From the NCBI GenBank assembly GCA_964608845.1, contig CAZSPP010000008.1:1-56487 (forward strand): a DNA stretch of 56,487 nucleotides. Reading direction: 5' to 3'. This document shows positions 8,610 through 36,357 of this stretch, one piece after another. The notes under the pieces were generated by a model, which saw nothing but the letters and a program-made list of their open reading frames with translations, ran no database searches and was not told where the DNA came from. How positions within the stretch are numbered: the stretch's first letter is position 1; each line of letters starts with the position of its first letter. A program made the position numbers and the translations under genes. This DNA comes from an uncultured archaeon (GTDB taxonomy: Archaea > Aenigmatarchaeota > Aenigmatarchaeia > GW2011-AR5 > JAHLMP01).

Positions 8610-8725
8610 TGGGTCTGCCCGGATTTGAACCGGGGTCTGAACCTTTTTCTCCTTTTGCAAAATTTTAAAATTTTTTAAAAATTGACCCGAAGGTCCGATG
8701 CTAGACCAAGCTACACCACAGACCC
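8610..8725 (-). tRNA. tRNA-Pro(CGG) with a 41-nt intron after position 37
   Basis: Hand-folded. Acceptor GGGTCTG/CAGACCC plus A73, anticodon stem GGACC/GGTTC, loop TT-CGG-G, intron 8645-8685, T-arm CCCGG-TTCAAAT-CCGGG. No encoded CCA. Confidence 0.8.
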
Positions 8726-15235: not shown

Positions 15236-15306
15236 TTTTCGCTAAAATTCGAACTCGTGACCTTTTGCTTACCATGCAAACGCTCTACCAGCTGAGCTAC
15301 CGGGGC
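15222..15306 (-). tRNA. tRNA-Thr(GGU) with a 12-nt insertion in the T-loop
   Basis: Hand-folded. GCCCCGG-TA-GCTC-AGCTGGTA-GAGC-G-TTTGC-AT-GGT-AA-GCAAA-AGGTC-ACGAG-TTCGAATTTTAGCGAAAAT-CTCGT-CCGGGGC-T. It is 73 nt once the 12 extra nt are removed. Confidence 0.85.
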
Positions 15307-35870: not shown

Positions 35871-36215
35871 TTAAATTCTCTCCTTATATTTATATATTTT
35901 ATATTTTCCGCATGCAAGGCATTTTATTCTTATAACCTTTTTTTCACTGTCAATTCTAACTTTCGCATTTTTCCCCGGAAAAAGAAAAGATTTACAATTT
36001 TTACAAAATTTCAATCTCAGATCTTTTGGAATTTTTACATTACATTTCATTCCTATTCTTCTCGCATATTCTACATACTTTTTCGATAAATCTAATCTAT
36101 CTTTCTTAGCAGCTTTTTCAGCTTCTTCAAAAAGAATTCTTATTCTTTCTAGGGCTATTTTTCTTATCTTTTTTTGCATTATTTTCATCTTTTTATTTTT
36201 CCTTTTGAAGATCAT
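35871..36215 (-). CDS. rnp4: RNase P protein component Rpp21/Rnp4
   Basis: N-terminal helices, then the zinc ribbon FCKNCKSFLFPG...KCLACGK. Confidence 0.75.
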   Translation of the reverse strand: MIFKRKNKKMKIMQKKIRKIALERIRILFEEAEKAAKKDRLDLSKKYVEYARRIGMKCNVKIPKDLRLKFCKNCKSFLFPGKNAKVRIDSEKKVIRIKCLACGKYKIYKYKERI

Positions 36216-36231
36216 TAAAAATTAAAAAAGA

Positions 36232-36315
36232 TGCGTCGACCGGGAATTTCTTTTAAAATTCGAACCCGGGTCACCAGCTTGGAAGGCTGGTGTCCTACCA
36301 CTAGACTATCGACGC
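36232..36315 (-). tRNA. tRNA-Gly(UCC) with a 13-nt insertion in the T-loop
   Basis: Hand-folded. GCGTCGA-TA-GTCT-AGTGGTA-GGAC-A-CCAGC-CT-TCC-AA-GCTGG-TGAC-CCGGG-TTCGAATTTTAAAAGAAATT-CCCGG-TCGACGC-A. Confidence 0.85.
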
Positions 36316-36357
36316 ATCTAAGAATAATATTTAAGAATAAAATTAAAATTTCTTTTG

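Follow-up and report, generated by a model that had tools for sequence, protein, structure and literature searches.

The T-loop of the tRNA-Gly(UCC) gene of this archaeon contains 13 nucleotides too many, and these are very likely an archaeal intron of the kind that is spliced by an endonuclease, located at the non-canonical site 59/60 and with a splicing motif of the relaxed bulge-helix-loop (hBH/BHL) form. The excision is suggested by the geometry of the motif and above all by its recurrence, since the motif of tRNA-Gly taken singly is weak, and the case for the intron rests on a family of 23 T-loop inserts in the genome and not on the fold of tRNA-Gly.

The tRNA-Gly(UCC) gene and its insert

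The window analysed is the whole of one contig (C8), 56,487 nt, from a genome of 618 kb with 29% G+C in 30 contigs. The gene and the elements of the putative splicing motif are all on the minus strand:

36232–36315, minus strand: tRNA-Gly(UCC) gene with intron; G1 is at 36315, the discriminator A73 at 36232 and the anticodon TCC at 36283–36281
36265–36269, minus strand: 5' strand of the T-stem, CCGGG (positions 49–53)
36259–36264, minus strand: T-loop positions 54–59, TTCGAA; the exon strand of the central helix is TTCG, 36264–36261
36246–36258, minus strand: predicted 13-nt intron TTTTAAAAGAAAT between tRNA positions 59 and 60, placed by the BHB rule and by the register common to the 23 T-loop inserts
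36248–36251, minus strand: intron strand of the central helix, AGAA, which pairs with T54, T55 and C56 and has a G57·A mismatch at the fourth position
36245–36247, minus strand: 3-nt bulge ATT adjoining the T-stem, with the predicted 3' splice site after its second base, before T60 (36245)
36240–36244, minus strand: 3' strand of the T-stem, CCCGG (positions 61–65), the outer helix h of the splicing motif
36316–36319, minus strand: leader AGAT, complementary to A73 and the trailer TCT (36232–36229)
35871–36215, minus strand: rnp4, RNase P subunit Rpr2/Rpp21 (PF04032, E 9.7e-17), starting 16 nt after A73

All stems of the tRNA are perfect. The acceptor stem is GCGTCGA/TCGACGC followed by A73, the D arm is GTCT-AGTGGTA-GGAC, the anticodon arm CCAGC-CTTCCAA-GCTGG with the anticodon UCC, and the variable region has 4 nt; CCA is not encoded, and the predicted mature length is 71 nt. 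The T-stem closes over 20 nt (TTCGAATTTTAAAAGAAATT) where 7 are usual. ARAGORN called no tRNA in the native sequence of the whole window, and Rfam at gathering thresholds reported nothing in it. At relaxed thresholds the Rfam tRNA model reached 28.9 bits as compared to the threshold of 29 bits, with the 3' end of tRNA-Gly misaligned. When the 13 nt were excised, ARAGORN called a 71-nt tRNA-Gly(tcc), and this product folds into a clean cloverleaf of −32.2 kcal/mol. What the earlier sequence-only reading had stated about the letters themselves was confirmed throughout. We also scored every single deletion of 0–30 nt across the gene with ARAGORN, and the deletions that rescued the gene were at gene positions 53–68, the exceptions being six calls with shifted gene bounds for deletions at positions 1–2.

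The insert is real DNA. It is unchanged in contigs from three hot-spring metagenome runs, one of which may be the source sample. Contigs from two runs stop at 36266/36268, within the T-loop, where the assembly probably broke off at a sequence that is common to many tRNAs. A search of sequencing runs found none of RNA that contains this DNA. That the gene is overlooked by standard finders is what would be seen with a decaying pseudogene or an assembly artefact, but this explanation is extremely improbable given the perfect stems, the identical sequence from the three runs, the same design in 22 other tRNA genes and the intron kept at the same site by orthologues of the same genus. Furthermore, no other Gly(UCC) gene was found; the gene holds the sole TCC anticodon arm within a tRNA gene in an assembly that is 87.7% complete, and it must therefore be functional and not a dispensable pseudogene.

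In the canonical intron at 37/38 the outer helix is provided by the anticodon stem and the central helix by bases 32–35 with their partners in the intron, and both 3-nt bulges are cut behind the second base. The T arm likewise consists of a stem of 5 bp and a loop of 7 nt. The cut sites in the T arm were placed by the BHB rule, as deduced from the standard 37/38 geometry: intron bases −6 to −3 would pair with positions 54–57 as the central helix, and the cuts would fall after A59 (36259) and before T60 (36245). Shifting the cuts by one base, to 60/61, would leave the mature sequence unchanged, since both junctions are T. The excision restores the loop TTCGAAT, the canonical seven bases.

The 3' splice motif is present in tRNA-Gly, with the T-stem, the ATT bulge and a TTC/GAA helix of three Watson-Crick pairs and the G·A. 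A58, A59 and the first intron base are at the place of the 5' bulge and are here part of a loop. The second 3-nt bulge and the inner helix h' of the strict hBHBh' form are absent from the 13-nt intron, and the 5' site is within an 11-nt hairpin loop (G57·A counted as unpaired), which makes the motif a relaxed hBH/BHL. For the single intron, the BHB-like fold has −31.9 kcal/mol versus −32.5 for the MFE fold (ViennaRNA). In the latter, AAUUUU/GAAAUU forms a competing helix that stacks on the T-stem and is favoured by 0.6 kcal/mol, and the pairs of the BHB-like fold have a probability of only about 0.16–0.17.

It had also been noticed from the sequence that the acceptor helix could be extended to 11 bp. 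The stretches 36229–36239 and 36309–36319 are indeed exact reverse complements, and the four extra pairs between leader and trailer are perfect and formed in the MFE fold, but such an extension is not general to the pre-tRNAs of the organism. We counted the consecutive Watson-Crick pairs beyond the acceptor stem in 41 tRNAs, with leaders combined with the trailers of other tRNAs as a control. No extra pair was found in 24 tRNAs, one in 6, two in 7, three in 2 and four in 2. Four or more pairs thus occur in 4.9% of the tRNAs (2/41), as compared to 3.5% of the mismatched combinations, and the mean is 0.83 as compared to 0.72; among the 41 tRNAs there is no recurrence beyond the control. Pairing between leader and trailer is cheap because the flanks are A/T-rich, and the 4-bp extension is due to chance and without a role. 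It is highly unlikely that the 11-bp helix is a processing signal, for instance for RNase P, which has a subunit encoded by the adjacent gene, or for an end processing of the BHB type. The perfect pairs of the MFE fold, and the three extra pairs that are possible with different bases in orthologues of the same genus, would fit such a signal; against it are the 24 tRNAs with no extension, the closeness to the control, the 0–2 pairs in more distant tRNA-Gly orthologues, and the helix itself, which is continuous and not flanked by bulges.

The distance of 16 nt to rnp4, pointed out earlier, was found to be correct. The gap between the tRNA and the start codon of rnp4 (36216–36231) is mostly a T-run, and rpl10 (P0) and rpl1 are located directly upstream of tRNA-Gly on the same strand. 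The rnp4 gene may be co-transcribed with tRNA-Gly or translated from a leaderless mRNA.

T-loop inserts in the genome and its relatives

ARAGORN with default settings found 9 of the approximately 41 tRNAs of the genome, and the Rfam tRNA model gave many partial hits. We scanned the genome for a G+C-rich T-stem strand, TTCRA, an insert of 0–80 nt, the closing strand and an acceptor strand with an upstream partner, and obtained 41 tRNA-like genes. Nine of these have a T-loop insert only (10–32 nt), 14 have a T-loop insert together with other inserts, 12 have other inserts only, and 6 are uninterrupted. The survey of T-loop inserts that the sequence-only reading had proposed thus gives 23 of the 41 genes (56%), with 18 distinct loop sequences, and such inserts are also present in relatives of the lineage. 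The 23 inserts, of 10–32 nt, are all at the same site and in the same register, and most of the 23 genes are recognised by ARAGORN after the insert has been cut out at 59/60.

The inserts have a common design. TTCG or TTCA at 54–57 is followed by A58, A59, the first intron base and a variable middle part; then comes NGAA, complementary to 54–57, and AAT or ATT directly before the 3' strand of the T-stem (23/23). In the 18 distinct loops the central helix has 56 Watson-Crick pairs out of 72, versus 21.5±3.5 with shuffled intron bases, and none of 2000 shuffles reached 56, in a test that ignores common descent among the inserts. They are not independent samples, because the T arms of several isoacceptors are identical (those of three Ser, two Lys, two Gln and two Glu). 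Over the 23 inserts, 73 pairs are formed in the register with a 3-nt bulge, as compared to 17–47 in registers shifted by 1–3 nt; the pairing of TTC with GAA and the ATT bulge beside the stem, both seen earlier in tRNA-Gly, are in the register common to all 23. An inner hairpin h' can be seen by eye in at least three longer inserts, those of 26, 27 and 21 nt, which completes the full hBHBh' motif. The short inserts have a loop in place of the second bulge and the inner helix, and many of the introns are only 10–16 nt.

A sister intron is found in the same window:

15236–15247, minus strand: intron of 12 nt in tRNA-Thr(GGU), likewise at 59/60; its TTCG/CGAA central helix is perfect and the bulge is AAT

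The 11 nt said to be shared by tRNA-Gly and tRNA-Thr, TTCGAATTTTA, do occur exactly at 36254–36264 and 15243–15253 on the minus strand, but they are not evidence of homology. A homology of the two inserts was considered and rejected: six of the 11 nt are the universal T-loop and five are A/T-rich, and with at most one mismatch the motif was found 12 times where 8.2 are expected, which does not exceed chance.

Several other features of the tRNA genes were observed. At least one insert interrupts 35 of the 41 genes, a share that equals that of the Thermoproteales richest in introns, and inserts are present in each of the three tRNA genes found in the window. One of these, at 8610–8725 on the minus strand, is Pro(CGG) by sequence and has an almost pure A/T insert of about 41–45 nt in the anticodon loop; Rfam gives it 39.4 bits with the insert allowed, and ARAGORN -i mislabels it as Phe(aaa). 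The -i option covers canonical introns only, and several genes were mislabelled with it. Further inserts in the D-loop or the anticodon arm are present in some genes, for instance Gly-CCC (C13:5879–5996) and Arg-CCU (C15:28094–28190). The T arms, intron included, are identical in three tRNA-Ser (C14:41526–41674, C17:20327–20421 and C21:1486–1590) and in Lys-UUU and Lys-CUU (C1:15177–15316 and C26:9284–9382), and these identical arms of isoacceptors suggest concerted evolution or a recent duplication of 3' halves.

The tRNA-Gly gene was also compared by BLAST with 60 relatives, and the loci were then inspected. Two genomes of the same genus have a 14-nt intron at 59/60 with a different sequence, a perfect TTCG/CGAA helix and an AAT bulge. 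In two other genera of the family the introns at this site are about 75 nt and 322 nt, in other families of the order they are 85–130 nt, and many other relatives have a tRNA-Gly with no intron at 59/60. All of these introns end with AAT or ATT beside the T-stem. The position is thus conserved among the relatives, while sequence and length vary. BLAST matches that stopped at the T-loop raised the possibility of a split tRNA-Gly in relatives, which was rejected when the 3' exons were found about 75–322 nt downstream at the same loci.

A strict pattern of the motif matched in 26 of 61 genomes, with 16 matches here, 4 and 8 in two congeners and 0–3 in each of the others, and the same pattern read backwards gave 0–2 matches per genome; the 61 genomes are kin, and these counts are a description and not statistics. 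In the pair between position 57 and intron base −6, the base opposite A57 is mostly T in the relatives and that opposite G57 is C or A, as judged by eye. By these comparisons the 59/60 site is old and widespread in the order, with the mini-introns concentrated in the genus studied here. It is conceivable, although on the whole doubtful, that the mini-introns at 59/60 have multiplied recently in the genus, and that they spread between tRNA genes through the palindromic TTCGAA after an ε2-type endonuclease that tolerates reduced motifs (a bulge, a helix of 3–4 bp and a loop) had appeared. Should this be true, the arrival and the shrinkage of tRNA introns in archaea could be studied in this small genome as a natural system.

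The long 59/60 introns in tRNA-Gly of the relatives have a hairpin module in common, CTTTTCTTT-loop-AAAGAAAAG (loci L005:~1550–1890, L009, L012, L013, L025 and L027; also L016 and L028). The same module is present in 37/38 introns of other relatives, which hints at one intron family at two sites.

It could be argued that the insert is retained and that the organism uses tRNAs with an enlarged T-loop of 17–39 nt, as the MFE fold keeps the cloverleaf and only adds a small hairpin in the T-loop. We consider this very improbable. The inserts of the orthologues range from 10 to 322 nt at one site, which would be intolerable for a functional loop, and the conservation is limited to the bases of the splice motif. 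The remaining T-loop bases, TTCGAA and T, are exactly the canonical seven, the genome encodes splicing enzymes, and the identical case in ARMAN-2 is cut in vitro (PMC3239211).

Splicing enzymes and the proposed route

Two genes for splicing endonucleases were found in the genome:

C21:3028–4245, plus strand: P0002, ε2-type endonuclease homologue, 406 aa
C12:1515–2129, minus strand: P0001, α-type endonuclease, 205 aa

Residues 25–406 of P0002 align in a single stretch to residues 12–387 of the ε2 enzyme of ARMAN-2 (4FZ2), with E 1.9e-105. One chain covers all three units (αN-α-βC), and Pfam reports two stretches of the N-terminal domain and one catalytic domain. With residue names and numbers from PMC6379350 and PMC12397907, the catalytic triad Y236/H251/K282 and the ASL residues Y160-K161 of P0002 are identical to those of 4FZ2, and R275 and W384 are conserved. 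The ASL is the loop that gives ε2 the ability to cut relaxed motifs (PMC6379350, PMC12397907). Full-length matches of the ε type are present in all nine genomes of this family (including G001–G008); in the other 52 genomes of the order, the P0002 query gave only partial matches in α-type frames of about 200 aa, or none. In the literature, ε2 is described from ARMAN-1/-2, the Mancarchaeum group and a few unnamed Candidatus species. Judged from its sequence, P0002 is most likely an ε2-type enzyme that acts on the 59/60 introns.

P0001 has the catalytic Tyr and His, with Ala at the aligned Lys (K156 of M. jannaschii, K282 of ARMAN-2), in the motif AHNIRA, and it also has a Lys-rich insert, KKGPK. 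AHNIRA is found in 26 of 28 α-type homologues (loci L086–L112) from 8 families of the order, and in some families the enzyme with this motif is the only endonuclease found.

A RtcB ligase is also encoded (E 5.3e-152). It is in one open frame of 970 aa (C21:8156–10912, plus strand), where the Pfam match is split into two parts (profile 1–50 and 44–426) about 1.4 kb apart, and the interruption looks like an intein-sized insertion.

From the motif, its recurrence in the genome, its conserved position in relatives and the presence of the enzyme genes we infer cleavage, the exact cut sites and the acting endonuclease. The T-stem of the precursor would serve as the outer helix, and T54–C56 would pair with GAA close to the 3' end of the intron to form a short central helix. 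The ATT bulge would carry the 3' splice site between its second and third base, and the 5' site, after A59, would be located in the hairpin loop at a symmetric distance; the overall geometry would correspond to a 37/38 intron transferred to the T arm. Both sites would most likely be cut by the three-unit ε2-type endonuclease of the genome. RtcB would then join the exons of 57 and 14 nt to a 71-nt tRNA with a normal TTCGAAT loop, and CCA would be added post-transcriptionally.

A real intron could also be handled in another way, with cuts at different bonds (58/59 for example), by the α-type paralogue in place of ε2, or after another processing step, but this is quite improbable. The competing helix is slightly more stable than the BHB-like fold, and families of the same order in which the P0002 query found only the α-type enzyme of about 200 aa still have 59/60 introns; these are mostly long and with an inner hairpin. 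However, a cut at 58/59 would give TTCGATT, unlike the loop of intron-less genes, and the conserved register with a 3-nt bulge indicates 59/60. The Ala at the catalytic Lys position speaks against the α-type enzyme, and the published ε2 substrate has the relaxed hBH form (PMC3239211).

Relation to known tRNA introns

The site 59/60 is one of the listed non-canonical sites of archaeal tRNA introns (PMC4090602). The sequence-only reading took the inserts as a lineage-specific intron class and not as random damage. An intron is indeed what the evidence favours, with the same site used in other tRNAs, but the type, BHB/BHL at 59/60, is a known one (PMC4090602, PMC3239211). The tRNA-Gly intron is a new example of a kind already described and represents no new class or mechanism.

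The closest case is known from Candidatus Micrarchaeum acidiphilum (ARMAN-2), whose pre-tRNA-Cys(GCA) has at 59/60 an intron of 13 nt; the motif is a relaxed hBH, and the precursor is cleaved in vitro by ε2 (Fujishima et al. 2011, PMC3239211). The same substrate was used again in a structural paper from 2025, where ASL mutants were tested (PMC12397907). The two cases agree in site, intron length and relaxed motif, and in a DPANN host with a full-length gene of the ε2 type. They differ in the tRNA, which is Gly(UCC) here and not Cys, and in the host, for which the closest records with a name carry the label Aenigmatarchaeota. In the present genome 23 of 41 tRNA genes make use of the site, as compared to a few in ARMAN-2.

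Non-canonical BHB introns are also well described in Crenarchaeota, notably Thermoproteales (Marck and Grosjean 2003; Sugahara et al. 2008; reviewed in PMC4090602). These resemble the present genome in that protein-spliced introns are located at non-canonical sites, with as many as three in one gene, and in that a very large part of the tRNA genes is interrupted (here 35/41). The Thermoproteales have (αβ)2 endonucleases and introns spread over many positions, whereas the T-loop site 59/60 dominates here and many introns are only 10–16 nt. Heavy disruption of tRNA genes and incomplete tRNA predictions have been reported for DPANN archaea (Pacearchaeota and Woesearchaeota) by Kaneta et al. 2018 (PMC5829648). 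Unlike here, the disruption in those cases is tied to α4 enzymes with an L3 loop, and at that time, in 2018, ε2 was known only from ARMAN-1/-2 and the Mancarchaeum group (PMC5829648).

Standard finders miss tRNA-Gly(UCC) and most other tRNA genes of this genome, which would therefore seem to lack essential tRNAs; allowing for an insert at 59/60 recovers the missed genes. With this finding the combination of an ε2-type endonuclease and relaxed 59/60 introns, described from the ARMAN-2 group, is seen in a further DPANN family, with an extreme preference for one site that affects 56% of the tRNA genes. It supports the published idea that the specificity of the splicing endonuclease and the disruption of tRNA genes co-evolve.
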